A DNA stretch of 64,000 nt. Source: Massalongia carnosa. Taxonomy: Eukaryota. The translations under genes were made by a program, and so were the position numbers. Positions 1-40,282 of the stretch are shown here, one piece after another (position 1 is the stretch's first letter; each line of letters starts with the position of its first letter). The notes below the pieces were generated by a model, which ran no database searches, had not been told where the DNA came from, and was given only the letters and a program-made list of their open reading frames with translations. Where the stretch lies: contig OZ287080.1 of the NCBI GenBank assembly GCA_965645245.1, positions 62,001 through 126,000 of the forward strand, written 5' to 3'.

Positions 1-1
1 C

Positions 2-3000
2 CTTGAGCTGTTCCGTGAGAGCGAGGCCAATCAGGTGCGTCTCCTAGGCAAGAACGTTCTAAAGGACCTTCGGCGAGACTACAGCATACGGCATGCGGTT
101 ATCGCGACGTGGCAGATCTCGTTCACTCAGATCCAGAAGACGGAGCAGCCAGCTGCAGATTTGCTTGCATTGATGAGCATGTTCGATAGGCAGGGAATTC
201 CAATAGCCCTTCTGCGGAACAGCACCAGTCGACTCGACTTTGACGACGCTCTGGCGCCGTTGCTAAGCTTCTCCCTTGTGCGGGCCGAGATCGGAAAGCA
301 GTCATTTGAGATGCACCGTCTAGTGCAGCTATCCATGAGAAAGTGGCTCGAGGCGGCCAAGCAGCTAAGCAAATGGACAAAGGAGTCGATAAGAGTTCTA
401 GCCGCAGCATTCCCCAACGGAGACTATAAGACGTGGGCGGATTGTCAAGTACTCCTTCCCCACGCAAGAGAAGCTATTGGCCATGGAACAGAAGATGAGG
501 TGGACGTGACAAATCAGGCACAGGTTGCTTCAAACTTAGGATGGTACTTACTCCTTAGAGGTGAGTACAGAACGGCGGAGAAAGTTGTTCGAATGTCAGT
601 CGAAGCAAGAGAGAGGGTACTTGGGCCAGAGCACCCAGACACGCTCACCAGTGTCAGCCATCTTGGGTGGTTGTTTGAGAGCCAGGGCAAGTACGAAGAG
701 GCGGAAGCGATGCACCGGCGAGCGTTGGAAGGAAGGGAGAAGGTACTTGGGCCAGAGCACCCAGACACGCTCACCAGTGTCAGCCAGCTTGGGTCGTTGT
801 TTGAGAGCCAGGGCAAGTACGAAGAGGCGGAAGCGATGCACCGGCGAGCATTGGAAGGAAGGGAGAAGGTACTTGGGCCAGAGCACCCAGACACGCTCAC
901 CAGTGTCAGCCAGCTTGGGTCGTTGTTTGAGAGCCAGGGCAAGTACGAAGAGACGGAAGCGATGCACCGGCGAGCATTGGAAGGATACGAGAAGGTACTT
1001 GGGCCAGAGCACCCAGACACGCTCACCAGTGTCAGCCAGCTTGGGTCGGTGTTGTCGAGCCAGGGCAAGTACGAAGAGGCGGAAGCGATGCACCGGCGAG
1101 CATTGGAAGGATTGGAGAAGGTACTTGGGCCAGAGCACCCAGACACGCTCACCAGTGTCAGCCAGCTTGGGTCGTTGTTTGAGAGCCAGGGCAAGTACGA
1201 AGAGGCGGAAGCGATGCACCGGCGAGCGTTGGAAGGAAGGGAGAAGGTACTTGGGCCAGAGCACCCAGACACGCTCACCAGTGTCAGCCAGCTTGGGTCG
1301 TTGTTCGAGAGCCAGGGCAAGTACGAAGAGACGGAAGCGATGCACCGGCGAGCATTGGAAGGAAGGGAGAAGGTACTTGGGCCAGAGCACCCAGACACGC
1401 TCACCAGTGTCAGCCAGCTTGGGTCGTTGTTTGAGAGCCAGGGCAAGTACGAAGAGACGGAAGCGATGCACCGGCGAGCATTGGAAGGATACGAGAAGGT
1501 ACTTGGGCCAGAGCACCCAGACACGCTCACCAGTGTCAGCCAGCTTGGGTCGGTGTTGTCGAGCCAGGGCAAGTACGAAGAGGCGGAAGCGATGCACCGG
1601 CGAGCATTGGAAGGATTGGAGAAGGTACTTGGGCCAGAGCACCCAGACACGCTCACCAGTGTCAGCCACCTTGGGTCGGTGTTGTCGAGCCGGGGCAAGT
1701 ACGAAGAGGCGGAAGCGATGCACCGGCGAGCATTGGAAGGATACGAGAAGGTACTTAGGCCAGAGCACCCACACACGCTCACCAGTGTCAGCCACCTTGG
1801 GTCGGCGTTGTCGAGGCAGGGCAAGTACGAAGAGGCGGAAGCGATGCACCGACTAGATTTGAAAGGATCTGAGAAGGTACTTGGACCAGAGCACCCAGAC
1901 ACGCTCACCAGTGTCAGCCAGCTTGGGTCGGTGTTGTCGAGCCAGGGCAAGTACGAAGAGGCGGAAGCGATGCACCGGCGAGCATTGGAAGGATACGAGA
2001 AGGTACTTGGGCCAGAGCACCCACACACGCTCACCAGTGTCAGCCAGCTTGGGTCGGTGTTGTCGAGGCAGGGCAAGTACGAAGAGGCGGAAGCGATGGA
2101 GCGGCAAGCATTGGAAGGATTGGAGAAGGTACTTGGGCCAGAGCACCCAGACACGCTCACCAGTGTCAGCCAGCTTGGGTCGGTGTTGTCGAGCCAGGGC
2201 AAGTACGAAGAGGCGGAAGCGATGCACCGGCGAGCATTGGAAGGATTGGAGAAGGTACTTGGGCCAGAGCACCCAGACACGCTCACCAGTGTCAGCCAGC
2301 TTGGGTCGTTGTTTGAGAGCCAGGGCAAGTACGAAGAGGCGGAAGCGATGCACCGGCGAGCGTTGGAAGGAAGGGAGAAGGTACTTGGGCCAGAGCACCC
2401 AGACACGCTCACCAGTGTCAGCCACCTTGGGTCGGTGTTGTCGAGGCAGGGCAAGTACGAAGAGGCGGAAGCGATGCACCGGCGAGCATTGGAAGGATAC
2501 GAGAAGGTACTTGGGCCAGAGCACCCACACACGCTCACCAGTGTCAGCCACCTTGGGTCGGTGTTGTCGAGCCAGGGCAAGTACGAAGAGGCGGAAGCGA
2601 TGCACCGGCGAGCATTGGAAGGATACGAGAAGGTGCTTGGGCCAGAGCACCCAGACACGCTTACCAGTGTCAGCCAGCTTGGGTCGGTGTTGTCGAGGCA
2701 GGGCAAGTACGAAGAGGCGGAAGCGATGCACCGGCGAGCATTGGAAGGATACGAGAAGGTACTTGGGCCAGAGCACCCACACACGCTCACCAGTGTCAGC
2801 CAGCTTGGGTCGTTGTTTGAGAGCCAGGGCAAGTACGAAGAGGCGGAAGCGATGCACCGGCGAGCATTGGAAGGATACGAGAAGGTACTTGGGCCAGAGC
2901 ACCCAGACACGCTCACCAGTGTCAGCCAGCTTGGGTCGGTGTTGTCGAGCCAGGGCAAGTACGAAGAGGCGGAAGCGATGCACCGGCGAGCATTGGAAGG

Positions 3001-5131
3001 ATACGAGAAGGTACTTGGGCCAGAGCACCCACACACGCTCACCAGTGTCAGCCACCTTGGGTCGGTGTTGTCGAGGCAGGGCAAGTACGAAGAGGCGGAA
3101 GCGATGCACCGGCGAGCATTGGAAGGATACGAGAAGGTACTTGGGCCAGAGCACCCACACACGCTCACCAGTGTCAGCCACCTTGGGTCGGTGTTGTCGA
3201 GCCAGGGCAAGTACGAAGAGGCGGAAGCGATGCACCGGCGAGCATTGGAAGGATTGGAGAAGGTACTTGGGCCAGAGCACCCAGACACGCTCACCAGTGT
3301 CAGCCACCTTGGGTCGGTGTTGTCGAGCCAGGGCAAGTACGAAGAGGCGGAAGCGATGCACCGGCGAGCATTGGAAGGATACGAGAAGGTACTTAGGCCA
3401 GAGCACCCACACACGCTCACCAGTGTCAGCCACCTTGGGTCGGCGTTGTCGAGCCAGGGCAAGTACGAAGAGGCGGAAGCGATGCACCGACGAGATTTGA
3501 AAGGATCTGAGAAGGTACTTGGACCAGAGCACCCAGACACGCTCACCAGTGTCAGCCAGCTTGGGTCGGTGTTGTCGAGCCAGGGCAAGTACGAAGAGGC
3601 GGAAGCGATGCACCGGCGAGCATTGGAAGGATACGAGAAGGTACTTGGGCCAGAGCACCCACACACGCTCACCAGTGTCAGCCAGCTTGGGTCGTTGTTT
3701 GAGAGCCAGGGCAAGTACGAAGAGGCGGAAGCGATGCACCGGCGAGCATTGGAAGGATACGAGAAGGTACTTGGGCCAGAGCACCCAGACACGCTCACCA
3801 GTGTCAGCCAGCTTGGGTCGGTGTTGTCGAGCCAGGGCAAGTACGAAGAGGCGGAAGCGATGCACCGGCGAGCATTGGAAGGATACGAGAAGGTACTTAG
3901 GCCAGAGCACCCACACACGCTCACCAGTGTCAGCCACCTTGGGTCGGTGTTGTCGAGGCAGGGCAAGTACGAAGAGGCGGAAGCGATGCACCGGCGAGCA
4001 TTGGAAGGATACGAGAAGGTACTTGGGCCAGAGCACCCACACACGCTCACCAGTGTCAGCCACCTTGGGTCGGTGTTGTCGAGCCAGGGCAAGTACGAAG
4101 AGGCGGAAGCGATGCACCGGCGAGCATTGGAAGGATACGAGAAGGTACTTGGGCCAGAGCACCCACACACGCTCACCAGTGTCAGCCAGCTTGGGTCGTT
4201 GTTTGAGAGCCAGGGCAAGTACGAAGAGGCGGAAGCGATGCACCGGCGAGCATTGGAAGGATACGAGAAGGTACTTGGGCCAGAGCACCCAGACACGCTT
4301 ACCAGTGTCAGCCAGCTTGGGTCGGTGTTGTCGAGGCAGGGCAAGTACGAAGAGGCGGAAGCGATGCACCGGCGAGCATTGGAAGGATACGAGAAGGTAC
4401 TTGGGCCAGAGCACCCACACACGCTCACCAGTGTCAGCCAGCTTGGGTCGTTGTTTGAGAGCCAGGGCAAGTACGAAGAGGCGGAAGCGATGCACCGGCG
4501 AGCATTGGAAGGATACGAGAAGGTACTTGGGCCAGAGCACCCAGACACGCTCACCAGTGTCAGCCAGCTTGGGTCGGTGTTGTCGAGCCAGGGCAAGTAC
4601 GAAGAGGCGGAAGCGATGCACCGGCGAGCATTGGAAGGATACGAGAAGGTACTTGGGCCAGAGCACCCACACACGCTCACCAGTGTCAGCCACCTTGGGT
4701 CGGTGTTGTCGAGCCAGGGCAAGTACGAAGAGGCGGAAGCGATGCACCGGCGAGCATTGGAAGGATTGGAGAAGGTACTTGGGCCAGAGCACCCAGACAC
4801 GCTCACCAGTGTCAGCCACCTTGGGTCGGTGTTGTCGAGCCAGGGCAAGTACGAAGAGGCGGAAGCGATGCACCGGCGAGCATTGGAAGGATACGAGAAG
4901 GTACTTGGGCCAGAGCACCCACACACGCTCACCAGTGTCAGCCAGCTTGGGTCGGTGTTGTCGAGCCAGGGCAAGTACGAAGAGGCGGAAGCGATGCACC
5001 GACGAGATTCGAAAGCATCTGAGAAGGTACTTGGGCCAGAGCACCCAGACACGCTCACCAGTGTCAGCCAGCTTGGGTCGGTGTTGTCGAGCCAGGGCAA
5101 GTACGAAGAGGCGGAAGCGATGCACCGGTGA
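2..5131 (+). CDS. Fungal NLR-like protein (NB-ARC/winged-helix end plus TPR superstructure), 5' part outside the window
   Basis: The frame is open from base 2 (LELFRESEANQVRLL...), so the track start at GTG 35 is not the real start. The motifs TWQISF..I, A.LL..MS.FDRQGIP, L.SFSLV, MHRLVQ and LLPHA are typical of the post-NB-ARC region of fungal NLRs. They are followed by 42-aa kinesin-light-chain-like TPRs (VLGPEHPDTLTSVSxLG...QGKYEEAEAMHRRALEG.EK). Confidence 0.92.
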   Translation, partial: LELFRESEANQVRLLGKNVLKDLRRDYSIRHAVIATWQISFTQIQKTEQPAADLLALMSMFDRQGIPIALLRNSTSRLDFDDALAPLLSFSLVRAEIGKQSFEMHRLVQLSMRKWLEAAKQLSKWTKESIRVLAAAFPNGDYKTWADCQVLLPHAREAIGHGTEDEVDVTNQAQVASNLGWYLLLRGEYRTAEKVVRMSVEARERVLGPEHPDTLTSVSHLGWLFESQGKYEEAEAMHRRALEGREKVLGPEHPDTLTSVSQLGSLFESQGKYEEAEAMHRRALEGREKVLGPEHPDTLTSVSQLGSLFESQGKYEETEAMHRRALEGYEKVLGPEHPDTLTSVSQLGSVLSSQGKYEEAEAMHRRALEGLEKVLGPEHPDTLTSVSQLGSLFESQGKYEEAEAMHRRALEGREKVLGPEHPDTLTSVSQLGSLFESQGKYEETEAMHRRALEGREKVLGPEHPDTLTSVSQLGSLFESQGKYEETEAMHRRALEGYEKVLGPEHPDTLTSVSQLGSVLSSQGKYEEAEAMHRRALEGLEKVLGPEHPDTLTSVSHLGSVLSSRGKYEEAEAMHRRALEGYEKVLRPEHPHTLTSVSHLGSALSRQGKYEEAEAMHRLDLKGSEKVLGPEHPDTLTSVSQLGSVLSSQGKYEEAEAMHRRALEGYEKVLGPEHPHTLTSVSQLGSVLSRQGKYEEAEAMERQALEGLEKVLGPEHPDTLTSVSQLGSVLSSQGKYEEAEAMHRRALEGLEKVLGPEHPDTLTSVSQLGSLFESQGKYEEAEAMHRRALEGREKVLGPEHPDTLTSVSHLGSVLSRQGKYEEAEAMHRRALEGYEKVLGPEHPHTLTSVSHLGSVLSSQGKYEEAEAMHRRALEGYEKVLGPEHPDTLTSVSQLGSVLSRQGKYEEAEAMHRRALEGYEKVLGPEHPHTLTSVSQLGSLFESQGKYEEAEAMHRRALEGYEKVLGPEHPDTLTSVSQLGSVLSSQGKYEEAEAMHRRALEGYEKVLGPEHPHTLTSVSHLGSVLSRQGKYEEAEAMHRRALEGYEKVLGPEHPHTLTSVSHLGSVLSSQGKYEEAEAMHRRALEGLEKVLGPEHPDTLTSVSHLGSVLSSQGKYEEAEAMHRRALEGYEKVLRPEHPHTLTSVSHLGSALSSQGKYEEAEAMHRRDLKGSEKVLGPEHPDTLTSVSQLGSVLSSQGKYEEAEAMHRRALEGYEKVLGPEHPHTLTSVSQLGSLFESQGKYEEAEAMHRRALEGYEKVLGPEHPDTLTSVSQLGSVLSSQGKYEEAEAMHRRALEGYEKVLRPEHPHTLTSVSHLGSVLSRQGKYEEAEAMHRRALEGYEKVLGPEHPHTLTSVSHLGSVLSSQGKYEEAEAMHRRALEGYEKVLGPEHPHTLTSVSQLGSLFESQGKYEEAEAMHRRALEGYEKVLGPEHPDTLTSVSQLGSVLSRQGKYEEAEAMHRRALEGYEKVLGPEHPHTLTSVSQLGSLFESQGKYEEAEAMHRRALEGYEKVLGPEHPDTLTSVSQLGSVLSSQGKYEEAEAMHRRALEGYEKVLGPEHPHTLTSVSHLGSVLSSQGKYEEAEAMHRRALEGLEKVLGPEHPDTLTSVSHLGSVLSSQGKYEEAEAMHRRALEGYEKVLGPEHPHTLTSVSQLGSVLSSQGKYEEAEAMHRRDSKASEKVLGPEHPDTLTSVSQLGSVLSSQGKYEEAEAMHR

Positions 5132-5152
5132 GCATTGGAAGGAAGGGAGAAG
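617..5152 (+). repeat. 36 x 126-bp tandem TPR-coding repeat
   Basis: The anchor GTACTT recurs at 617, 743, ... and the array ends at GTAC 5153; (5153-617)/126 = 36. Units differ at only a few codons. Confidence 0.95.
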
Positions 5153-5662
5153 GTACTCAATTTTGCGATGAATATATTCAACTCTATTATTCGTCTTCAT
5201 GGACTTTGCCCATATCTCAATGAGATAGTTATATTAGGTTAATATATTCTTTATAAAAAAACACTAATTAATCGTGCTATACCATGTCCAAAACTCAATT
5301 TTTGCAATAAATCTTACTTGTTGTTTGAAACAATCAAGGACCTTGTTGAGGAAGATCAGATAAACGTTTGATTGCTAAAGATGGGCAGCGCGTATAATCT
5401 CTTTCTCAAGTTTATATTATAAGGGGGCAATTCGGGTGGTAATAAATGATATATCGACACCCTCACATAGTTCCTTGAGCTGCCTAGTTAAAGGGCACTT
5501 AGGTATTTAGAGAATAGGTGTTCTTTTTCTTCCATTTTTTCCTATGCCTTGGGGTCATCCGGATTTTATTAAAACCCCCATCCTATTATCTTAGGGGTAC
5601 GGATATTTGCACACCTCTCCGGCTTCTTATATACCCCTCTCCGGATAGATCAACACCCTAGG

Positions 5663-5914
5663 CCGGCACGCGGTGCGAGAAATAGTTGACACACCAAAAA
5701 TATAAATTAATTATGATAGGCTACATCGTTAAGTAATACATTTCAAAAAAGTTAAGGTGAATTTGATCGCATAACTCTATTACTATATCAAGTCTGTTTT
5801 ACTCGTTCATCTGTTGTTGATTTTCTATATTATATTGAAGCTTTGATAGTTCTGTAGTTTTATGCGTACTGATGAGTTTTGGTGTGTCAACTTTTTTTCG
5901 CACCGCGTGGCCGG
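5663..5914. mobile_element. Small MITE-like element with about 37-bp imperfect terminal inverted repeats
   Basis: CCGGCACGCGGTGCGAGAAATAGTTGACACACCAAAA at 5663 is the near reverse complement of TTTTGGTGTGTCAACTTTTTTTCGCACCGCGTGGCCGG ending at 5914. The interior is AT-rich and non-coding; no TSD is evident. Confidence 0.5.
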
Positions 5915-6570
5915 ATACACTAATACCCCTCGTTAGGGCATATGGCTCTGCACCTCTTGTTTTGTACCTAAGCATGACATTTAGTTCGATTAATAAGCTG
6001 ATCAAGCGCATTCCAAAGCTGTCGATGTTTTGAAATTCGGACGATTAATCGTCGGCTCGCTTAGCGGGATCCGACTCGGAGGCCGTCGCCTCCTAGTCGG
6101 GGAAAGCGATTTGCATCCGGAATGCGATTAGCATCCATTCAAACTGCAATTTTGACTATTTTTCACCTTTTACCCTCAACAACATTGATCAATCATTACT
6201 TAATATCGTAAAAAGCTTGAAAGCATCGTCGTCGTCATCGTTGTCATCAAAATTATCCCCCCCCCTCAATTTCCGATCCTTTATTATCGCATTTGCAACT
6301 TTCGAAAAGACGTTTTCAACCTCCCTTCGTACCATGGAAAATAATGCCTCAATCTTGGTTTCCACTCTCAGCCCCATGGAAAGATTGGAAGAAGCGAAGC
6401 AATTTCTGATTGATCATCCCGAAGAAAGCAAGGCTGCTGCGTCAAAAATCTACAATGTCAACGTTAAAACGTTGACGTCTTTTGTTCGTCGTCATCCGAA
6501 AGAAGGAAAGAAAAAAGAAGGGAAAAAAAAGGGGGGAGAAAATTAGATACTGAAAGAGCATGAAGCTAGG

Positions 6571-6774
6571 TGTAAAGGTAATCATCATAATAAGGGTGTG
6601 TAAAAGGATGTCCATTGAGATGTGCTAGCAAGCTCGTCTATATACAGCTAATCTAGACTAGTCCCAATCTGGACCTGCTCCTATCATGGAAGGACCAAAG
6701 AGTTAAGCCGGGCTTATCACGGAGATAAGCAAGTGTTAGAGTACGAAAGCATGCTATATTATATTATCGTGACA
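6571..6774 (-). repeat. LTR (3' LTR in element orientation)
   Basis: TGTAAAGG...CGTGACA, a direct repeat of 10648-10851. Confidence 0.9.
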
Positions 6775-7032
6775 ACTTCCCCCGAGCAAATAAAGCTGCT
6801 ACGACCCCGTAGCAATATTATTACTTACTAACTCTGCCATCTTTCCTGGGTCTTCCACGACCCCTCTTTACCGGCATGACTGCTTTTGTAGCGGGTACCA
6901 TAGCTCCCGTAGTAGGTGTTAGTGAGGCGGATTGTGGAGTAGGTGTGACCTTTGTAGGACCAATCGTGGACGTTTCAGCGGGAGCCACCTTTGACATTTG
7001 TACTGCCTCACCAGCTCGTGCTGTGATAGCAG

Positions 7033-7836
7033 GTGTATCCAAGGTCAAACTACCGCAATCAAAGAGGAGGAAACAAACAAAATCAAGGTGGCTATAGGAG
7101 GGCGTATCAGGCTTCAGTTGAAGACGACGAAGATCTGCAGGAGAGCCCCGGAACATCCTCAGTCGAGCCAGAGGACATGCCGGTAAATTTCGCTGGGTAT
7201 GATGAGCATGGGAACGAGATGTTCTATGCAGAGCAGGATGCACCAGAGGAATCCGAGGACTTCGCTTGGTTTGTCGGCATAGACTCTTCCTGCACCAACT
7301 GTCAGGAATCCTTTCCATCGAAGAACAAACTACACAAACACCTACGGTCTGGATGTTCCAGGACATCGCCTGCCTCAAAAACCTTGAAAAAATTTGCAAA
7401 TTTCACTTCTAACAAGCTGTCAGTTGACAAAGAGAATGAACACGGATCGAACGCCTATGCTACTTCCGTAGTAGACACCACTACCACTACTCCTATCATA
7501 ATCACATCCAAGGCTTCTACAGAAAACCTCGGTTTTGGACTAGGCTTTCGTAACTGGAACTTCATCGAGGGAGCGGTAAAGTTTACCCCGGAAGGTCCAT
7601 CCACCGATTGCTGTCTGGACACTGGTTGTGGTTCCACTTTAGGAGATCGAGAGTGGATTAGCAGAGACATTCCTAACGCTAAGGTTCATCTTATGGCAAA
7701 TCCGCTACGAGTTCGAGGTATTGGTTCCAATACGCATGAAACAAGGAGTACATTTTGGTTCCATTCTACATGCCGGCCTCAAAGGCGTCCGATGGAACGT
7801 CGGTTCTGGCCTGTATCACCCGTGAAATCCACATAG
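7033..7836 (+). pseudogene. Gag C-terminus with C2H2-like finger, plus aspartic protease N-half (inverted block)
   Basis: CTNCQESFPSKNKLHKHLRSGC (C2H2 pattern) and CCLDTGC (protease active site). An apparent 1-nt deletion near 7745 shifts it out of frame with 7755..10349. Confidence 0.75.
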
Positions 7837-10349
7837 TGGATGGTCTCAAGGCCAATATGCTGATCGGAAACGACGTACTTGGACCAGAAGAATTTGTTAT
7901 TGATATAAACAAGAAAAAGGCTTACATCGGTAGCTGTGATGTAAACATCAGCCTTCAGGTCAGACCTCGTGGAACTTTCATCAGAAAGACCGTTCGCATA
8001 AGGTCCGCTGTTACCGTCACCCCAGGTGCTGAGTTAAAAGTCCCTGTTAACATGATCTTACCAGCAGACAGAGACTTTCTTTTTAAACCTACCGATAAAG
8101 CAAATGTAACTTTGTACTATCACCTCGTAGATGCACTTACTGCAGAAATCGTAGTCCGAAACGACTCGCCTATACCAGTGGAACTTCCAAGAAAATTCCG
8201 CCTCGGACAGGTCTCCGAGGTCCACTATAACGAATGTTTTCACATAGCTGACAAAGACCTTGCCACCAAACCACCAAAGGCAAGTTGGTTCAAAAAAGCA
8301 TTTAAAGCAGCAGCATTTCTGACTGCTGTTACTATGGATCTACCTACTCCAAGTCTTTCATCATTTCCCCCAGAAAATTCCATTAAGGTAGCTACCACAG
8401 CATCTTGCAACAAGTATGAGACCAAGCTAGCCAACGGTGTCATGACCTATGGCGACACGATAGCCACCAGGGCCTATTCAGACCTGGTAGACGAGTTTCC
8501 CTCACTATGGAAGGACGAAGGCTTCATTGATGTTCCTATGAACCAGTGGATGAAGCTACCCCTTCGCGAGGATTGGCAGTCGAAGGTCTCTGGAAAATCC
8601 AAGGTCTATCCCCTGGGAATAGAAGACAGGGAAATAGTAGATAAAACCTTTGACGAAATGCATCGACAAGGACGATTAATATGGACCAATACGCATACTC
8701 CATTCAGCTACCCTGTTTTTGTCGTTTGGAAGAAAATCGGTGACGTCCGGAAAGGCCGTGCCGTCGTAGACATCAGAGGCCTGAATGATCTTCTGGTTCC
8801 TGATGCCTACCCGGTCCATCTACAAAGTGATGTCATAGCAGACCTTCGTGGATGTACTCACATTTCTGTCCTAGACGCGAATTCTTTCTTCTATCAATGG
8901 CGCGTTCATCCGGAAGACACATATAAGCAAACAATAGTCACTCACCGAGGCCAGGAGACCTTTTTGGTACCAGTGATGGGCAATCGCAACTCCATTGCTT
9001 ATGTTCAAAGACAAATGGACACCATTCTTCGGGACTTCCGTGACTTTGTCAAAGCTTACATAGATGACGTGGTAGTAAGATCAACGTCCCTAGATGAGCA
9101 TTTAATGCATCTTCGGAAAATCTTCTCCTTATTCGTGAAGCTTGGAATATCCATCAAGCCCACCAAGGCTTTTTTAGGCTATTCAGACGTTGATCTTCTC
9201 GGGCAGAGGGTAAACTCCCTCGGCATGTCCACCTCCGAGGAGAAACTTCGCGCCATATCTCTGTTGAAGTTCCCCAAGGCGCTGATAGACTTAGAACATT
9301 ACCTCGGTCTTACCGGCTATCTACGTTCTTTCATCTACTACTATGCAGGCATAGCCCGCCCTCTACAAGACCTAAAAACGCGCCTTCTAAGGGCATCTCC
9401 GAAAGGAGGTCAACAACGACGAAATTATACGTCTCGTACTAAGATAATCCCTACCGAAAAAGAGACTTCAGCGTTTATAACCCTTCAGAAGCTGCTTAGC
9501 AAACCCTCCATCCTCATTCATTTTAGTCCACACCGCATTCTCTGGATAGACCTAGACGCCTCCAAAGATTTTGGGTATGGTGTTATAGTCTTCCATGTCA
9601 AAGTCGGTGTTATAGTACCAATCGGAAAATGGCCTTCAAGAAATCAAATAGAACCCATCATGTTCCTTAGCCGTCTCCTTACGGCGGCTGAAAAGAACTA
9701 CTGGCCTACTGAACTAGAGATGGCAGGTCTAGTATGGACCATCAAAAAAGTCAGACATCTTGTCCAATCATCGGAGCATCCAACGATCGTTCAGACAGAT
9801 CACTCCGCTATAATCGAAATCAGTAAGCAAAAGCTAATAACGGCCACTACATCGACCATGAGAATGAACGTCCGATTGATCAGAGCTTCTCAGTTTCTGA
9901 GTCAATTCCGACTCGACATCAGGCATAAACCAGGCAAAGAGCACATCATTCCTGATGCTCTTTCCCGACTAGCCAGCGCCAACGTGAGGCCTATCTTAGC
10001 CGATGATCACTCGGAGTTGGATGTCTTATACGTCTACAACACTACGGTCGTAGAAATGAGCAATGACTTCAGAAAACGTCTCATCGCCGGTTATTCTACA
10101 GATAAATTATGGATCAATATAATCCAAATAATAGACACTAACGATAAACTCGACGAGGGCGCCGCTAAAATTCCTTTTGCCCGGGGAAACACTATGGAAA
10201 TTCCAGTCAATCCAGCTGAGATGAACTCAACTGAAAAATCAACTCAGGAAATTTTGCCAATTGGCAAAACAGACAAGGATCTCATCTATCACATAGATAG
10301 ATTCGATCGGAGGGCAAGGCCTGATGATGATTCCTCCGGAATTCTGTAG
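7755..10349 (+). CDS. Gypsy pol fragment: protease C-half, reverse transcriptase and RNase H; integrase missing
   Basis: RT motifs RAVVDIRGLN, LDANSFFYQ and AYIDDVVV; RNase H motifs DLDASKDFGYG, ELEMAGL, QTDH and HIIPDALSR. The last about 14 codons come from the inversion junction. Confidence 0.85.
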   Translation: MVPFYMPASKASDGTSVLACITREIHIVDGLKANMLIGNDVLGPEEFVIDINKKKAYIGSCDVNISLQVRPRGTFIRKTVRIRSAVTVTPGAELKVPVNMILPADRDFLFKPTDKANVTLYYHLVDALTAEIVVRNDSPIPVELPRKFRLGQVSEVHYNECFHIADKDLATKPPKASWFKKAFKAAAFLTAVTMDLPTPSLSSFPPENSIKVATTASCNKYETKLANGVMTYGDTIATRAYSDLVDEFPSLWKDEGFIDVPMNQWMKLPLREDWQSKVSGKSKVYPLGIEDREIVDKTFDEMHRQGRLIWTNTHTPFSYPVFVVWKKIGDVRKGRAVVDIRGLNDLLVPDAYPVHLQSDVIADLRGCTHISVLDANSFFYQWRVHPEDTYKQTIVTHRGQETFLVPVMGNRNSIAYVQRQMDTILRDFRDFVKAYIDDVVVRSTSLDEHLMHLRKIFSLFVKLGISIKPTKAFLGYSDVDLLGQRVNSLGMSTSEEKLRAISLLKFPKALIDLEHYLGLTGYLRSFIYYYAGIARPLQDLKTRLLRASPKGGQQRRNYTSRTKIIPTEKETSAFITLQKLLSKPSILIHFSPHRILWIDLDASKDFGYGVIVFHVKVGVIVPIGKWPSRNQIEPIMFLSRLLTAAEKNYWPTELEMAGLVWTIKKVRHLVQSSEHPTIVQTDHSAIIEISKQKLITATTSTMRMNVRLIRASQFLSQFRLDIRHKPGKEHIIPDALSRLASANVRPILADDHSELDVLYVYNTTVVEMSNDFRKRLIAGYSTDKLWINIIQIIDTNDKLDEGAAKIPFARGNTMEIPVNPAEMNSTEKSTQEILPIGKTDKDLIYHIDRFDRRARPDDDSSGIL

Positions 10350-10647
10350 CTGTGGACTATATACTGAATGGTTCGTTCAATGGGAAGGATGTCCGAGCTA
10401 AAGCCGTATTCCTTACGGTAATGAAAGAATTGATAGGCTAACAGAATAAGGTCTTCTGAAAGAGGTGGAGTTGAACCTTGTGGAGGGGAAACAGAGGAGA
10501 ATTGGGAAGCCAGGTTGGGCCTCGCCACGGTGAATTCAACCGAGGTGAGCTTTGGCAGGAAGACTGGTTGAAGTGCTACTTCTGGTGGAGGACTCCTCCT
10601 GGTGATCTATACAGTAATCAATGGTACTGCGAGACAGTGCTACCATT

Positions 10648-10851
10648 TGTAAAGGTAAGCATCATAATAAGGGTGTGTAAAAGGATGTCCATTGAGATGT
10701 GCGAGCAAGCTCGTCTATATACAGCTAATCTAGACTAGTCCCAATCTGGACCTGCTCCTATCATGGAAGGACCAAAGAGTTAAGCCGGGCTTATCACGGA
10801 GATAAGCAAGTGTTAGAGTACGAAAGCATGCTATATTATATTATCGTGACA
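10648..10851 (-). repeat. LTR (5' LTR in element orientation)
   Basis: Direct repeat of 6571-6774, followed by TSD CTAGG. Confidence 0.9.
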
Positions 10852-11344
10852 CTAGGGCTTTAGATGGATTCATTAAATCCTTATTGATACATGGAATTCC
10901 ACCTACGCATCATATAGCTTTTAATGCAATTATAAGTCTGAGAAAGGCTCATAAATTAAAAGCTCTATCAAGACGATGGTTTCGGTCTTGGTGGAAACGT
11001 AGCAATTTACACAAGATTAAGACCAAACTATTACCAATGGTTCGCTTTGAAGCCGCTGAAGAATCAGGTGTGATCAAATGGTTTAATAGCTATAAAGAGG
11101 TATTGAGGGAATTAAAAATCAGAAGAAGACGAAACATTTTAAACTTTGATGAAGCTGCTTTTCGAATTGGATGCATGAATGGTCAGGAAATCTACGTTCC
11201 TATGGAAATCAAGCAATTCTAAGCCGTCAGCCCGGAGAATCGCCGATCTGCGACGGTCATTTAGACGATCAATGCTGCTGGCGACTATCCCCCTCCCCCC
11301 ATGATCATCATACAGGGTCAGGAAATCATGGCGACGAGGTTTTC

Positions 11345-12376
11345 TGTAATACGGATGGCGCTAGAGGGATACGTGATCGCCTATGGCGGTTGCGGGATTA
11401 ACTAGCGTGGACCATGCCGTAGTACGAAGTCGCATAAGCCGTCGAGGCTGACACACTGCCATCTTGCCCCGAAACTTCGGAGTTATTGTTATCACGTTTT
11501 CTTGACTACTTACAGATCAAACACCTGTCGAGGCCGTGGTGGTAGATTGCCATGGAGTGTAAGGCGGACTCCTGTGGAGACGCCAAGGAACCCTATATGG
11601 GATCTACTGGCCTACTCGGAGCTACTGGATCTCTTGATGGTTCAAGAGAGGTAGCAGGAGGCACGGCTCGCTGGACGCAGCTTGAGCTAGGCTCCCCGGT
11701 GTAAACTTAAGCTTCAACCTTTATTACTACGTTGGTAGTGATGTCGGCTGAATGAACCTACATGACCTCATTGTCTAGACCTTGTGTCTAGAGGCAGGTC
11801 CGCGGTGTAGCAAGGTATTCAGTCGGAGGTAACCTTCCATCACTAGGTAGTGGTGACGGCGAAATGATGCTACATAGCCTGAGGCATGTAGTGAGGGATC
11901 TAGCCGGGGGTAGAATTGTTCTACCTTGCAAGGGAAGATCTAGAAGGCTGCTCGAGGCTGACTAGATGATCCAGCGAACGCCGAGTTCGTGGATGGATCC
12001 TGAGGGATGGTTGGATGTAATGCGATAAAGTCGGATGTGGATTGCAAGGCTGTAATGCTCGCAAGACTCCCAAGGCTTGCAAGGCTCCTAAGGTTCCAAG
12101 GCTCCCAAGGCTATAGGCTTGGGGTGAGTAGGATAAATATCAGAACGAATCTTGTAGTATTCGTTAGCAATTAGTCTTTATTCTATGAACAACCTACGTT
12201 TGGGTCTCGGACGAGATCTCTTGGTCTAAGCACTTCCACATCCATTAGTTCTTTGGATCACGTATACTCTCGGAGACTAGCACGTAGTAGCTATCTTCCA
12301 CCTCTCACGCTGAGCATTTCCCCTTTCGAGATCAGTGTCGCTCGTGATAAGCTTACTGGTCTCGTAGCCCATTACA
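11345..12376. mobile_element. Solo LTR, about 1.03 kb, family S copy 1
   Basis: TGTAAT...ATTACA termini with TSD TTTTC. It interrupts the pogo transposase and is near-identical to 13217-14246 and, reversed, 19787-20816. Confidence 0.9.
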
Positions 12377-13216
12377 TTTTCGGAGGATTCGCCGGTGGGC
12401 ACGCGTATTGTACCTTCCGACAGTGGTTTCACATCTGATAAGATAGCAATTGAATAATTGAAGCATCTAATTCAAAATTCGGATGCAGGACCTAAAGCAG
12501 ATTGGAAATTACTCCTGATAGATAATCATAGCAGTCACGTTACTCCTGAATTTGTACTTCTGGCCAATGAAAATCACATTCGTCCCTACCCACTAATTAC
12601 ACATTTGACTCATTGCATGCAGCCATTAGATGTCGGCGTGTTTCAGCCCTATAAACACTGGCATCAACATGCTATTGAGGAGAATGTTGCATCGTCATTT
12701 GTCGAGTATTCCCTGACTCGGTTTCTTCAGGATTTGATCAAAATTAGAAACCAGACATTCAAAGCTTGTACAATCCGACATGCATTTGAAACTTCGGGAA
12801 TGTGGCCGGTCAATCCAGAAGCATACATTCGTCAGCCGAAACAAGTCATTCTCGATAATTCTAGTCTGAACAATTCTGATCTGACTGATCAGCCCTCAAT
12901 TCCTCTACCTCGTCAAATTCAACCTAGGGATATAGTCGACATAGAAAATGGATTGCGTCAATGGGGGTCAAAAATTCAAGAATCTATGCAATGGAGTGAT
13001 CCCGCCCGAGCAGGGGAATTTGATTCTTTTATAGCTGGTACGAAAGAGATCATTTCGAAGTCTATACTCGGCGAAGCGGAGCATGAAATATATCAGCAGC
13101 AAAGAACGAATCAGCTAAACAGCAGACGAATATCTCGTAAAAGATTGAGACCTGAAATCGGAAGATTGGGAATAACCGCTGAAGATGCGAAGCAAGCTAT
13201 AGCCATAAAGCTACAA

Positions 13217-14246
13217 TGTAATACGGATGGCGCTAGAGGGATACGTGATCGCCTATGGCGGTTGCGGGATTAACTAGCGTGGACCATGCCGTAGTACGAA
13301 GTCGCATAAGCCGTCGAGGCTGACACACTGCCATCTTACCCCGAAACTTCGGAGTTATTGTTATCACGTTCTTGACTACTTACAGATCAAACACCTGTCG
13401 AGGCCGTGGTGGTAGATTGCCATGGAGTGTAAGGCGGACTCCTGTGGAGACGCCAAGGAACTCTATATGGGATCTACTGGCCTACTCGGAGCTACTGGAT
13501 CTCTTGATGGTTCAAGAGAGGTAGCAGGAGGCACGGCTCGCTGGACGCAGCTTGAGCTAGGCTCCCCGGTGTAAACTTCAGCTTCAACCTTTATTACTAC
13601 GTTGGTAGTGATGTCGGCTGAATGAACCTACATGACCTCGTTGTCTAGACCTTGTGTCTAGAGGCAGGTCCGCAGTGTAGCGAGGTATTCAGTCGGAGGT
13701 AACCTTCCATCACTAGGTAGTGGTGACGGCGAAATGAAGCTACATAGCCTGAGGCATGTAGTGAGGGATCTAGCCGGGGGTAGAATTGTTCTACCTTGCA
13801 AGGGAAGGTCTAGAAGGCTGCTCGAGGCTGACTAGATGATCCAGCGAACGCCGAGTTCGTGGATGGATCCTGAGGGATGGTTGGATGTAATGCGGTAAAG
13901 TCGGATGTGGATTGCAAGGCTGTAATGCTCGCAAGACTCCCAAGGCTTGCAAGGCTCCTAAGGTTCCAAGGCTCCCAAGGCTATAGGCTTGGGGTGAGTA
14001 GGATAAATATCAGAACGAATCTTGTAGTATTCGTTAGCAATTAGTCTTTATTCTATGAACAACCTACGTTTGGGTCTCGGACGAGATCTCTTGGTCTAAG
14101 CACTTCCACATCCATTAGTTCTTTGGATCACGTATACTCTCGGAGACTAGCACGTAGTAGCTATCTTCCTCCTCTCACGCTGAGCATTTCCCCTTTCGAG
14201 ATCAGTGTCGCTCGTGATAAGCTTACTGGTCTCGTAGCCCATTACA
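13217..14246. mobile_element. Solo LTR, family S copy 2
   Basis: Same termini, its own TSD TACAA (13212-16, 14247-51), same orientation as copy 1. Confidence 0.9.
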
Positions 14247-16134
14247 TACAAAAAGATCAGGAAATTGAGAAGAAGAAGGAGAATAATAACTTCATGAAGT
14301 TGTGGAGAACGGAAAGAGACGAAATTCATGTTAAAGGGGTGACTGCTCGAAAAGCAGAAAGGGATCGAGTCAAACGACTAAAAGAGATACAGAAAGGGCC
14401 CGGTGCCATCTCAGTTGAGATGAATGAGGAGATTCCTGACCCCGAGGCATTATGGAAAGCGACGAATGAGGTGTAGATAGCTGAGGAAGCGAAAAAAGAA
14501 GCCCGAAAGAATCTATCTACATCTGCTCGTGCCAATGTTGAAGAAGACGTCACATTTATTGTAGATGAGACAGAAGCTAGAAATGGAGGCATTTCGAACA
14601 TTTCGAATATTCCGGACATTCCAGAAGAAGCATGGCTACGAGATGATTTTGTGTCTTTCAATCCAGGTTTCGAATCGGGAGATGCTTCGAATTATGAGGG
14701 GGATGCGGGGTATGCGGGGTATCAGGAAGATCAGAATAATCAGGGTGGTCAAAGTGGTCAAGGGGGTCAGGGGGGTCAGAGGGATAATTTTAATAACGGC
14801 TTTGATGATGACGATGCCTTTCGAGCTTTGTATGAAATTTAGAATCAATAAATCAATGTGGTTGAGGGTAAAAGGTGAAAAATGGTCAAAATTTCAGTTT
14901 GAATAGATGCTAATCGCTTTCCGGATGCAAATCGCTTTCCCCGACAAGGAGGCGACGGCCTCCGAGTCGGATCCCACTAAGCGAGCCGACGATTATTAGC
15001 CCTGGGTTTTAAGACAAAGTTTGGCTGAGGTTGGACCCTGAAAATTAACTAAGTGATCGAATCCCGAAAAATTAAGGTTTAGTGAGCTGAATTCTGAGGA
15101 ACATCACGGTCATACATACCTTTATTATTACATATCCATCATCGGGAAATCGGGAGGACCCGCGAATTGGTCCAATAGTCGACTAATAGGCTACATTAGT
15201 CAATTAGCCGAAATGTTCTAGGTACTGCCGATTGCGCCCACGTTTGACATGGGCGCTTGACGAATAGTCGAACATTTGACCTGTAAACAGCTGCTCTTTG
15301 ACTATTGATTACCTTTACCTTTCTTTGTCCAATGATGATAATTGCTTTATTGACTCTTTTGTGTCATTGTAAGCATTTGAATCCAATAATTTCATTAATT
15401 AACTTGTTGTTTTAGTAACGATTGTAACAAATCTTGCGTATGTCAAAATGCACTGCTTTTGTTTCCTTTTCGAGCGCTTGATGCTGCAAGATACGACGAT
15501 AAAGACACACCAGTCGAGTAAATTATCATGATTTGGTTTAATTAATGTTATGTAAGTTCTCCCATATTGTCGTCCTCCCTCGCAGAGTCTTCATCTGCTT
15601 GAGAATGCGCCCAGTTTCCTCTTCGTATCACTACTCTATGCACCTGTTCCACCCGATCCAAAAACGAACTCTATTCCTCCTCAAAGCTCAATACGGCCTT
15701 GGGATTGTTGATACAGTATACCAGAACGACTCTCCATCTTTTATTCCCACAGCAGTCTGCCACTCCTTCCACGTTGCATCATACCTCATCTAAATCCGCC
15801 AGTCTTTTCCCATGCGTAAATCGTAATCTATCGCATCTTCTTGACCCGAATCTGTCGTCACGATTGCGTCTTGCGCGAGTGGAGTTGGAGTTGACGATAT
15901 CTTGTCGTTAATCTGTTTCCAACGCAATTGTTAGACTAACAGATATTCTACAAACAAAGCGAATACTTACGAAGGATGAACTTGATGCGCTGTGCTTTAA
16001 TTGTGAGGGTTCACGTTCCGAAGAATTCTAGGAGAGATGTTAATACCACGTTAGAACGCGGTTAATAAGATTGCATACCTCGTGGCTTATCAACTGCGGC
16101 GGTCTAGGTGAAGAGGTTTCCTTCTATGATCGTC

Positions 16135-39600: not shown

Positions 39601-39689
39601 CTCCGTGCCTAGTTCAGAGCCGCGCTGCCTACTCCTCTGCTACCTCTACGTGCCCCAGGTCATCAGATTCGCACTTCCACCCACTACCC

Positions 39690-40282
39690 CTCTTCATCAT
39701 CCTTCGTTCTTTTTCTTTGACTGCCATCATGGCCTGACTCATGGTCTGTTGCGCTTGACTTTGCACGCTAATTCCAACTCTCGCATTCGTTCTGGACGCC
39801 GATCCTGCATTAACTATCTCTATAAAATGTGATCCTTGACCATGAACGAAAAACCGCTGACATATGACGATCCGCCATGGCTTGGGAGTCGGATTTGATG
39901 CGAATATCTTACTGGGTCTTCCCCTTCGCGCTTGCGCCGACCATCTATGCTTTTGCTTGCTATGCATTCTCATGCTGTCTTCATTGCGACAAATGTATTG
40001 AAATCTAATCGGTTCAATTTCACATAATAATCCATCGGAATACACGGGCAATATACGGACGGGACTATCGATTCGAATGGGCATGTATAATTCAACGGAA
40101 TATTGAATCAAATAGGGCCATGATTGCGCTGTCTCCGCGATAGGTGCGGCTTCCCTGCTTTTCATTCGATGCTGCGGGCCTTGAAAATAGGACTGCACCT
40201 GAGCGGGCCAAATTGCGTGTTGGAATTTGCGACACACGATCATTCGCCACTCTCTCAAAAGTTAAATAGGTAATACCCTCAT
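39690..40282 (-). pseudogene. N-terminal fragment of a DUF3505/OrsD-like zinc-finger protein
   Basis: IVCRKFQHAIWPAQVQSYFQGPQH (degenerate C..C...H....H), LPVYSDGLLC....YICR....MRMH....H.W and WR.V.CQRFF..G.GS.FIE. This is the recognisable DUF3505 pattern. It has an early stop and is 3'-truncated. Confidence 0.7.

Follow-up and report, generated by a model that had tools for sequence, protein, structure and literature searches.

A 36-unit TPR array in Massalongia carnosa as the probable C-terminal end of a fungal NLR-family gene

What kind of gene carries 36 nearly identical repeats that differ at only a few codons? This question arose at one end of the 64,000-nucleotide window that we analyzed from Massalongia carnosa (assembly GCA_965645245.1, contig OZ287080.1, positions 62,001 to 126,000 of the forward strand). 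An earlier reading of the letters alone, which we will call the sequence-only reading, had proposed a large and actively reshuffling non-self receptor of the NLR type at the edge of a transposon nest. Judging by homology, positions 2-5131 of the + strand are very probably the C-terminal ~1700 residues of a fungal NB-ARC/DUF7779/42-residue-TPR gene of the NLR family (STAND), in the high-internal-conservation (HIC) class. Because the NTPase and the effector would lie upstream of the window, the NLR label rests on homology.

The reading frame and the repeat array

The coding part of the locus has these features:

2..610, + strand: pre-array coding part, with DUF7779 at nt 128-355, then a helical linker, then one degenerate capping TPR
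611..5146, + strand: TPR array (predicted sensor superhelix) of 36 units of 126 bp in tandem, with one 42-residue TPR per unit
5129..5131, + strand: TGA stop, at codon 37 of unit 36
5147..5157, + strand: 11-nt stub of a 37th unit, where the repeat similarity stops

Tandem Repeats Finder reported a single array at 611-5157, with a period of 126 bp, 36.1 copies, 95% matches, 0% indels, and a score of 8035. Cutting at 126-nt steps from 611 yields 36 in-frame units of 42 codons, and the identity at a lag of 42 residues stays at or above 0.70 along 36.2 units. The 36 near-identical TPRs that the sequence-only reading placed at 617..5152 fall within this array. The open reading frame (2..5131, + strand) spans 1709 codons, and its 5' end is open at the window's first base. 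At codon 37, 33 units have CGA, one has CTA, one has CAA, and one has the TGA stop. The C>T change behind this stop also produces a GGTGAG string.

Other frames of the array are open too, over 1555 and 1115 codons. The unit contains no stop in those frames, and for this reason the open frame of the array is not evidence of constraint. The antisense or off-frame reading frames of the array (1555, 1115, and 539 aa) had Pfam matches to SMK1_alpha_su, SRAP, BACON, HAD_RAM2_N, and others. We rejected these because no single stretch passes: the scores are sums of one chance match of 20-30 residues per unit.

The units are 0.849-1.000 identical to each other at the nucleotide level. Only 23 of the 36 are distinct by DNA and 20 by protein. 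Identity does not decay with distance (0.941-0.962 at lags of 1 to 15 units), and exact repeats of 440, 337, and 318 nt lie inside the array, at lags of 13, 4, 12, 7, and 6 units. Blocks of several units have been duplicated exactly, and the rearrangement is recent. HIC repeats have been defined by over 85% identity across at least 100 aa (Dyrka et al. 2014) or by a Psim of at least 0.7 (PMC13449251). The 36 units here, 1512 aa in total, have a mean pairwise identity of 0.948 in DNA and 0.895 in protein.

The array is unusually long: it has 36 units, versus at most 18.2 among the 378 relatives that we retrieved. Its size is what stands out, since the type of NLR is already well described. A rival reading is that the true locus has fewer units or has them in another order, and that the assembly is wrong. 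Assembling 4.5 kb of 126-bp units that are 95% identical is difficult, and the array has exact duplicates as long as those above. Also, the public-run contigs that we placed on positions 4769-6200 come from four runs that all consist of short contigs, and none could span the array. We nevertheless regard an artefact as improbable. There are 0 indels across the 36 units, and the order of the 23 distinct units is not periodic. A protein of the window sits on a contig of 2,020,593 bp, which suggests a long-read assembly. Assemblers tend to collapse such arrays and seldom expand them.

The public contigs do bear on the 3' end. The stop and the letters of the 3' junction are also found in contigs from the runs of two other studies. 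Two contigs (X4 record 17, at 5123-5226, and X5 record 25, at 5100-5204) each depart from the window at positions 5180 and 5187 only. An X2 contig has a loose end at 4895 that resembles the pre-array sequence; it is uninformative because all of the unit starts are alike.

Homologues and the state of the gene

In the 203 residues before the array, we identified DUF7779 (PF25000) at aa 43-118 (E = 3.1e-10; 40.6 bits, versus a cut-off of 27). Over residues 1-215, the fragment is 86%, 83%, and 80% identical to its three closest homologues (P0003, P0005, and P0004, respectively), with 100% coverage and without a stop or frameshift. All three have DUF7779 in the matching place. In P0003, NB-ARC is at residues 455-662 (27.6 bits, versus a cut-off of 23.5), and the first residue of the window aligns at about residue 664, right after this domain. 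By this similarity, segment 2..610 is the predicted C-terminal end of a nucleotide-binding module. NB-ARC passes our Pfam scan (E ≤ 1e-5) only in P0003. In P0005, AAA_16 was below the cut-off, although the precomputed list gives PF00931, and P0004 had no match.

Upstream of the aligned part, the closest homologues have a Walker-A-like string (GLGG[V/I]GKSQ) and a hydrolase-like string (AHSFGG or AHSLGG). Four of the five that we examined (P0003, P0005, P0009, and P0011) share a common N-terminus with AHSFGG, which resembles a nucleophile elbow. The N-terminus of P0004 is different and has AHSLGG. No Pfam hydrolase family matched the N-termini of the closest homologues at E ≤ 1e-5. The sequence-only reading had taken the array for the TPR tail of an NLR, and the evidence agrees: the units match TPR_10 and TPR_12, DUF7779 precedes the array, and NB-ARC lies just upstream in homologues that are 80-86% identical. 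A role as a non-self receptor is putative.

The window's fragment is 80-86% identical to proteins from Fusarium, Zopfia, and Geoglossum, and a Fusarium and a Zopfia protein are 79% identical to each other over 1155 residues. As a long shot, the gene family might pass horizontally from one distant ascomycete class to another. Scanning metagenomes with residues 1-203, we found 19 relatives at 48-88% identity, none of them identical. The gene's own full-length product was absent among the best 120 and the best 150 protein matches listed (the highest identity in the latter was 63%), while a transposon protein from the same window (P0211) did turn up in a protein search.

The region beyond the array has the following features, with no strand assigned:

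5158..6045: AT-rich 3' flank with a GC content of 0.37, single-copy within the window (from composition and self-BLAST)
5667-5909: 243-bp element with 33-nt inverted ends (inverted repeat I1)
6046..12500: first part of the nest of transposons, with a DDE_1-type element split by a gypsy-type LTR retrotransposon (from self-BLAST and Pfam matches to RVT_1, RNase H, and DDE_1)
6571-10851: the gypsy-type LTR retrotransposon, with 204-bp LTRs that are 99% identical (from self-BLAST and Pfam)

The nest that had been proposed beside the gene begins at 6046, and the remainder of the window is made up of copia, gypsy, and DDE_1 elements. One X5 contig skips 5658-5909. We found no further pieces of the gene beyond the transposons: all 39 blastn and 36 tblastn HSPs were inside 1-5200. 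Among the 42 ORFs that we scanned in the window, none was a Starship captain-like gene or another marker of something other than a transposon nest.

Could this be a dead or truncated relic of an NLR, in which the upstream part or the 3' end has been lost or broken, and homogenisation within the array keeps the repeats looking intact? The transposon nest is just 0.9 kb away. The array stops abruptly in mid-unit, with a change from CGA to TGA 26 nt before the similarity ends. The absence of the gene's own product from the best matches listed also fits a relic, as does the metagenomic relative L018 (86% identity), which appears to be broken within the same region. Furthermore, the repeats of NWD pseudogenes are reported to stay nearly intact, and many NLRs to be pseudogenised (PMC13449251).

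On balance, we consider a relic somewhat unlikely. The 203 non-repeat residues align at full length with homologues at 80-86% identity, without a disruption. The GC content of the gene region is 0.53-0.60, and there is no RIP-like signal in the index. Homologues commonly finish in their last unit or shortly past it: in 74 of 115, no more than 84 residues lie between the start of that unit and the end of the protein, and 5 end at unit position 38. Contigs from two other studies have the same stop and junction, and by self-comparison, the 888 bp past the array are not a transposon.

Fold and variation of the units

The array matches TPR_10 (E = 3.8e-47) and TPR_12 (E = 2.4e-47) in Pfam, and the TPR of kinesin light chain 1 (KLC1) matches it at E ~1e-48. 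An AlphaFold2 model of units 9-18 (pLDDT 95.1, pTM 0.86) has alternating helix pairs, with helix A at residues 9-24 of the unit and helix B starting at residue 28 and reaching into the next unit, as far as its residue 3. Foldseek matches this model to KLC1/2 with a probability of 1.00. The predicted fold of the array is a TPR solenoid like that of kinesin light chains. The Podospora "42PR" structures 4y6c and 4y6w, of 42-residue repeats, also align with the array (E = 2.9e-17 to 2.9e-18). We take these to be engineered TPR-like repeats from a Podospora protein of the HIC TPR kind. Their 42-residue repeats are near-identical, as in the array, but they are short constructs of 229 residues.

Across the units, 29 of the 126 nucleotide columns and 21 of the 42 codons vary. 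Seven codons (10, 17, 21, 22, 23, 24, and 42), which are 16.7% of the unit, hold 2918 of the 4122 pairwise nucleotide differences (70.8%). Codon 10 is D in 22 units and H in 14; codon 17 is Q in 23 and H in 13; codons 21-23 are VLS in 23, LFE in 11, and ALS in 2; codon 24 is S in 29 and R in 7; and codon 42 is Y in 21, R in 6, L in 6, and S in 3. Codon 31 is A in 33 units and T in 3. All of the variable states that had been listed from the sequence alone occur among the 36 units.

These states are reassorted between units, as the sequence-only reading had claimed. All four combinations are seen for the pairs 10/17, 10/24, 17/24, and 10/LFE, and 9 of 10 within-unit pairs have no significant association (Fisher p > 0.05). 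LFE/VLS is a fully linked block of 4 nucleotides, that is, a single linked haplotype, and the states of codons 23 and 42 are 2-3 nucleotides apart. The array may be actively reshuffling. Neighbouring units follow a rule: every His10 has a unit that ends in Tyr42 before it (14/14; p = 6e-5), and none has an LFE unit there (0/11). This would fit with selection on pockets between adjacent repeats.

To ask where the variable positions lie, we used the KLC1 residues that contact the JIP1 peptide, as named in PMC6214655. We placed these on the unit's register by alignment, and every residue letter agreed. The contacts correspond to positions 13, 16, 17, 20, 21, 23, 24, 28, and 42. Five of the seven hypervariable positions coincide with contacts in the KLC1 groove (hypergeometric p = 0.0026; this is a mapping by homology, not from the coordinates of the model). 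Positions 10, 17, 21, and 24 are inside one 60-degree arc of helix A. The exceptions are position 22 (L/F), which belongs to the buried stripe, and position 10, which has no KLC1 contact. Variable sites had been expected to face the ligand, and as mapped via KLC1, they do lie on helix A and the end of helix B, mostly at contact positions. Variation limited to a few positions on the ligand face is another criterion for HIC repeats, and the homology mapping to KLC1 points to this pattern in the array.

The homologues vary at similar positions. Of 120 homologues, 81 have at least 6 recognisable units, and the positions that vary most within these proteins are 42, 23, 20, 24, 10, and 13. The array's seven hypervariable positions outrank the others in variability within the 81 homologues (Mann-Whitney p = 0.006).

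Has diversifying selection acted on these positions? The codon-level results are mixed. The ratio piN/piS is 2.06 overall and 0.260/0.043 (6.1) in the seven hypervariable codons, versus 0.015/0.026 in the other 35 codons; because the units share ancestry, these pi-based ratios overcount single events. By count, there are 7 silent codon states and 23 replacement ones, about the neutral ratio of sites (28.7 synonymous to 97.2 non-synonymous). Each silent state occurs in at most 3 units, and 8 replacement states occur in at least 6 units. Silent variants had been described as comparatively few, which is true of their frequencies but not of the number of states. Frequency-spectrum tests within the array gave p = 0.125 and p = 0.084. 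So, diversifying selection is favored by the piN/piS ratios and is not favored by the state counts or by the frequency tests. From this array alone, the formal evidence for positive selection at the hypervariable positions is weak.

The types of mutation also differ between the two classes of codons. The hypervariable codons have 13 transversions and 3 transitions, versus 7 and 13 in the other codons (Fisher p = 0.008). RIP as the source of the variation was ruled out, as (CpA+TpG)/(ApC+GpT) stays within 1.15-1.41 throughout and most of the hypervariable changes are transversions.

Neutral concerted evolution might also produce such an array, if a few old types of unit (such as LFE and VLS, perhaps from paralogues) were shuffled with no diversifying selection on the binding face. 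The neutral ratio of states, the non-significant frequency tests, and the complete linkage of LFE/VLS are all consistent with this, and block duplications have inflated the frequencies of the states. Against it, seven codons hold most of the differences, these codons coincide both with the KLC1 contacts and with the most variable positions of the homologues, and the bias towards transversions is specific to them. Also, in Pa_2_10340 of Podospora, TPR sites under positive selection were found on the concave face (Dyrka et al. 2014, PMC4986451). We think that a purely neutral origin is unlikely.

Relation to known receptors and possible function

The best comparison for this gene is to the sesB-like/NB-ARC/TPR HIC NLRs described by Dyrka et al. 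2014 (PMC4986451). In both, the 42-residue TPRs are nearly identical within a protein, a few concave positions are hypervariable, and the units are thought to have recombined. The closest homologues of the array gene and the Podospora HIC TPR NLRs have the same order of domains: a hydrolase-like N-terminus, NB-ARC, and TPR (PMC4986451). They differ in size: 2 to over 15 units are reported for the Podospora alleles and 21 for the longest HIC TPR array of that survey (PMC4986451), versus 36 here.

The sequence-only reading had instead compared the gene to the HNWD (NACHT-WD40) family. The HNWD/NWD proteins (HET-E, HET-D, HET-R) do share HIC repeats, hypervariable ligand-facing positions, concerted evolution, and repeat shuffling with it (PMC13449251). 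But the array would form a TPR solenoid rather than a WD40 beta-propeller, the putative switch is NB-ARC rather than NACHT, and the effector of the homologues is hydrolase-like rather than HET. The HIC TPR NLRs fit better, and the gene is not a member of HNWD. NLRs of the HET-Z/PLP1 type also combine NB-ARC (which is predicted from homologues for the array gene) with TPRs, but their effector is a patatin, while that of the array gene's relatives is hydrolase-like. An allorecognition role has been proven for HET-Z/PLP1-type NLRs in Podospora (PMC13449251).

Another candidate function is a non-immune TPR scaffold outside of the NLRs, such as an adaptor like kinesin light chain. Kinesin light chains are the best matches among solved structures, and some homologues have the database names "kinesin light chain" or "nephrocystin-3". 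KLC1 and KLC2 (PDB 3nf1, 6fuz, 3zfw, and 3edt) also have a 42-residue TPR unit and the same fold. In contrast to the array gene, they are cargo adaptors with 6 diverged repeats and no NTPase, and they serve here only as a structural ruler. The defining features of kinesin light chains are an N-terminus of heptad repeats and six diverged TPRs, whereas DUF7779 precedes this array and its 36 units are near-identical. The closest full-length relatives have NB-ARC and a hydrolase-like N-terminus, and they lack the kinesin-binding coiled coil. Extreme internal conservation is reported to be enriched in NLRs (PMC4986451). We consider a scaffold extremely unlikely.

If the gene encodes an NLR, then its TPR superhelix would bind a protein or peptide ligand on the concave face (helix-A positions 10, 17, 21, and 24, plus 23 and 42). 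At rest, the superhelix would keep the upstream NB-ARC switch off. A bound ligand would lead to nucleotide exchange and oligomerisation, and the N-terminal effector would then set off a defence or cell-death response. The effector would be an alpha/beta-hydrolase-like domain (reportedly labelled "sesB-like" by Dyrka et al. 2014) if it resembles that of the closest homologues. The 126-bp units would exchange sequence by unequal crossing-over and by gene conversion over short tracts, and the scaffold would stay homogeneous as a result. These processes would also shuffle the few kinds of residue found at the contact positions and alter the number of units, and therefore new binding surfaces could arise fast.

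As 36 units far exceed what one binding site needs (KLC has 6, and the Podospora HIC TPR alleles have 2 to over 15), the array might be a multi-site "library" sensor, or a store of cassettes that yields shorter alleles of new specificity by unequal recombination. We view this as a long shot. If there is a library sensor, then stretches of a few units along the multi-turn superhelix would form different pockets, and one protein would survey many ligands.

The principle is not new: HIC NLRs of this kind, hypervariability of their concave face, and their association with transposons have already been published (PMC4986451; PMC13449251). Among fungal recognition receptors that evolve fast, the HIC NLRs are the best candidates, and almost no ligand is known for them. 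Because short-read assemblies collapse such arrays, a cleanly resolved 36-unit array with a simple alphabet at seven positions is an unusually rich record of shuffling at a single locus. It would also be a handy template for experiments on binding and specificity, and for asking what limits the length of such arrays.

The repeat array and its variable codons

Tandem Repeats Finder reports a single array at 611-5157, with a period of 126 bp, 36.1 copies, 95% matches and 0 indels. Sliced every 126 bases from 611, it gives 36 in-frame units of 42 codons each. Pairwise identity between units averages 0.948 for DNA, with a range of 0.849-1.000, and 0.895 for protein; at the DNA level, the 36 units comprise 23 distinct sequences. 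Searches by blastn and tblastn found no further TPR units elsewhere in the window. The open frames over the array are:

2..5131, forward strand: reading frame of the array, 1709 codons, already open at window position 1
514-5181, reverse strand: antisense open frame, 1555 codons
1853-5200, reverse strand: antisense open frame, 1115 codons

The antisense frames stay open because the unit has no stop codon in those frames. The open reading frame of the array is not, by itself, evidence of constraint. We rejected the Pfam matches on the antisense frames: their scores sum one short chance match in every unit, and no stretch passes. Such spurious scores are a trap for automatic annotation.

Variation among the 36 units affects 29 of the 126 nucleotide columns and 21 of the 42 codons.

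Residue states at variable codons of the unit (number of units)
Codon 10: D 22, H 14
Codon 17: Q 23, H 13
Codons 21-23: VLS 23, LFE 11, ALS 2
Codon 24: S 29, R 7
Codon 31: A 33, T 3
Codon 42: Y 21, R 6, L 6, S 3

Seven hypervariable codons (10, 17, 21, 22, 23, 24 and 42), one sixth of the unit, account for 70.8% of the pairwise nucleotide differences (2918 of 4122). Most pairs of these sites show all four combinations of states, and 9 of 10 site pairs within the unit have no significant association, so "combinatorial reassortment" is a fair description. The sequence-only reading, which proposed 36 near-identical units whose listed states are reassorted between units, is borne out here, and each of those states was found.

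Family placement and the ends of the gene

Pfam identifies DUF7779 (aa 43-118, E 3.1e-10) in the 203 residues that precede the array, and the repeats match TPR_10/TPR_12 (E about 1e-47). With residues 1-215 as the query, 1167 of 4162 candidate proteins matched at E<=0.001. Among the matches listed, the highest identities are to proteins from Fusarium nematophilum (P0003, 86% identity), Zopfia rhizophila (P0005, 83%) and a Geoglossum simile MAG (P0004, 80%), each with 100% query coverage. In all three, the N-terminal region is conserved and contains a GxSxG-like string; a Walker-A-like GLGG[V/I]GKSQ string comes next, followed by the stretch that aligns to the window. The first residues of the window align at about residue 664 of P0003, in which a Pfam scan places NB-ARC at residues 455-662, with a score of 27.6 bits (cut-off 23.5), and DUF7779 at residues 706-782. 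Since this NB-ARC ends just before the aligned stretch, the window starts directly after the expected end of the NTPase. In the same kind of scan (E<=1e-5), NB-ARC was below threshold in P0005 and P0004; despite this, a precomputed domain list assigns PF00931 to P0005. From these homologues, we infer that the NTPase and effector domains of the array gene would lie upstream of the window. The full-length product was not found among the matches listed in the protein searches.

The proposal of an actively reshuffling, non-self NLR is largely right: the TPR array and DUF7779 are present, the NLR label is a prediction from sequence similarity, and "active" and "non-self" are presumed.

P0003 (Sordariomycetes) and P0005 (Dothideomycetes) are 79% identical over 1155 residues, and the fragment before the array shares 80-86% identity with proteins whose names point to three separate classes. 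Such identity between classes is unusually high for an NLR, which hints at horizontal movement. In a metagenomic relative (L018 9458-10240, 86% identity), the frame ends within a region that is continuous in the window's gene; it is probably a broken copy.

At the other end of the gene is the stop codon:

5129-5131, forward strand: TGA stop; this codon is CGA in 33 of 36 units, and CTA, CAA and TGA in one each

Repeat similarity continues 26 nt past the stop, to 5157, and the sequence beyond is AT-rich (GC 0.37), with no second copy in the window. Of 115 homologues, 74 terminate no more than 84 residues after their last unit begins, and in five the end is at unit position 38. Short contigs from the runs of two other studies (X4 record 17, 5123-5226; X5 record 25, 5100-5204) read across both the stop and the junction, and their only mismatches to the window are at 5180 and 5187. 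Because many homologues end alike and these contigs bridge the stop and the junction, the 3' end is probably native. The TGA arises by a C>T change that also yields GGTGAG (within 5126-5133), a string resembling a 5' splice donor.

Structure and selection at the variable sites

In a single-sequence AlphaFold2 model of units 9-18 (420 aa; mean pLDDT 95.1, pTM 0.86), helix A spans residues 9-24 of the unit, and helix B starts at residue 28 and runs on to residue 3 of the following unit. The nearest solved relatives are kinesin light chain TPR domains (sequence E about 1e-48; Foldseek probability 1.00), and the Podospora 42-residue repeat structures 4y6c and 4y6w also matched. Helix A carries six of the seven hypervariable positions, with 10, 17, 21 and 24 within a 60-degree arc; position 42, the remaining one, lies close to the end of helix B. 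Position 22 (L/F) is on a buried stripe and changes only together with the LFE block.

To map contacts we used kinesin light chain 1 (KLC1) as a ruler, by homology alignment instead of model coordinates, and all residue letters agreed. The KLC1 residues that contact the JIP1 peptide, which passages of PMC6214655 place on the concave surface, fall at unit positions 13, 16, 17, 20, 21, 23, 24, 28 and 42. These contacts include five of the seven hypervariable positions (17, 21, 23, 24 and 42; hypergeometric p=0.0026). In 81 of 120 homologues, those with at least 6 recognisable units, variability within proteins is highest at positions 42, 23, 20, 24, 10 and 13. The window's seven positions outrank the rest (p=0.006), with positions 4-12 partly fixed by the search pattern. 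This ranking is independent support for the contact mapping.

For the whole unit, piN/piS is 2.06; it is 0.260/0.043 at the hypervariable codons and 0.015/0.026 at the other 35. The hypervariable codons show 13 transversions versus 3 transitions, and elsewhere there are 13 transitions versus 7 transversions (p=0.008). At codons 23 and 42, two or three nucleotides separate the states. Speaking against selection, the distinct states (7 silent, 23 replacement) are at the neutral site ratio, the contrast between silent and replacement state frequencies is not significant (p=0.125 and 0.084), and the units are non-independent observations. It is the position of the variable sites and the analogy to known systems that make diversifying selection likely; the array alone is no proof.

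Array dynamics, surroundings and known systems

Identity between units is flat with distance (0.941-0.962 at lags of 1-15 units), and there are exact repeats of 440, 337 and 318 nt, at lags of 13, 4, 12, 7 and 6 units. For example, unit types N-O-(P)-Q-R occur at units 18-22 and 31-34. This is the expected trace of unequal crossing-over and gene conversion. Sites inside a unit are nearly unlinked, and a rule acts across units: His10 follows only units that end in Tyr42 (14/14; Asp follows Tyr 7 times and non-Tyr 14 times; p=6e-5) and never an LFE unit (0/11, p=9e-4). Block duplication accounts for part of this rule, and the remainder may reflect contact between adjacent repeats.

As the sequence-only reading had it, the array sits at the edge of a transposon nest, which fills the window from 6046 onward with DDE_1, gypsy and copia elements:

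5667-5909: 243-bp element in the 3' flank, with 33-nt inverted ends (94% complementary)
6046-6571 and 10865-11343: halves of a DDE_1-type element, matching 48774-47801 on the opposite strand
6571-10851: gypsy-type LTR retrotransposon, with 204-bp LTRs (99% identical)
28926-29708 and 39632-40261, both reverse strand: a pair of ORFs with FAR1/AFT-type DNA-binding (E about 1e-6 to 3e-7) and OrsD (E 1e-14) matches in Pfam

The gypsy-type element is a young insertion that interrupts the DDE_1-type element; copia, gypsy and DDE_1 elements occupy the window after it. One X5 contig joins 5658 to 5909 without the 243-bp element, which thus appears to be a small non-autonomous transposon whose presence varies between samples. 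The FAR1/AFT-type and OrsD ORFs sit among retrotransposons and may be transposon-derived or host remnants.

Composition indices of the window gave no RIP-like signal in the array or the transposons. A sequence of about 1033 bp occurs three times at about 99% identity (11345-12377, 13217-14247 and 19787-20816), and RIP-type indices are 1.15-1.41 across the window. Together these suggest that the genome mutates repeats only weakly, which may be why a 4.5-kb near-identical array survives.

According to passages of Dyrka et al. 2014 (PMC4986451), 21% of the TPR domains of fungal NLRs have high internal conservation (HIC), and most HIC TPRs are 42 residues long. The same passages describe a Podospora sesB-like/NB-ARC/TPR gene with 2 to more than 15 repeats depending on the isolate, whose selected and polymorphic sites are on the concave side of a KLC2-based model. 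Passages of a 2026 study (PMC13449251) report a more frequent association with transposable elements for HIC NLRs, as well as the co-occurrence of HIC and length polymorphism. The array gene belongs to the kind described in these passages of Dyrka et al.

Its size as assembled is the distinguishing feature: 36 units, versus at most 21 for HIC TPR arrays in the survey of Dyrka et al. Runs with lag-42 identity of 0.70 or more reach 36.2 units here and at most 18.2 among 378 retrieved proteins; those proteins are samples of the top-scoring matches, and they come largely from assemblies in which arrays of this sort may be collapsed. A protein encoded in the window sits on a 2.02 Mb contig, which suggests a long-read assembly. 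The next-longest array among the retrieved relatives is from the lichen fungus Lasallia pustulata, and one run containing parts of the window is labelled lichen metagenome; these hint at habitat only. The array is a textbook-quality and unusually long example of a phenomenon that has already been described.
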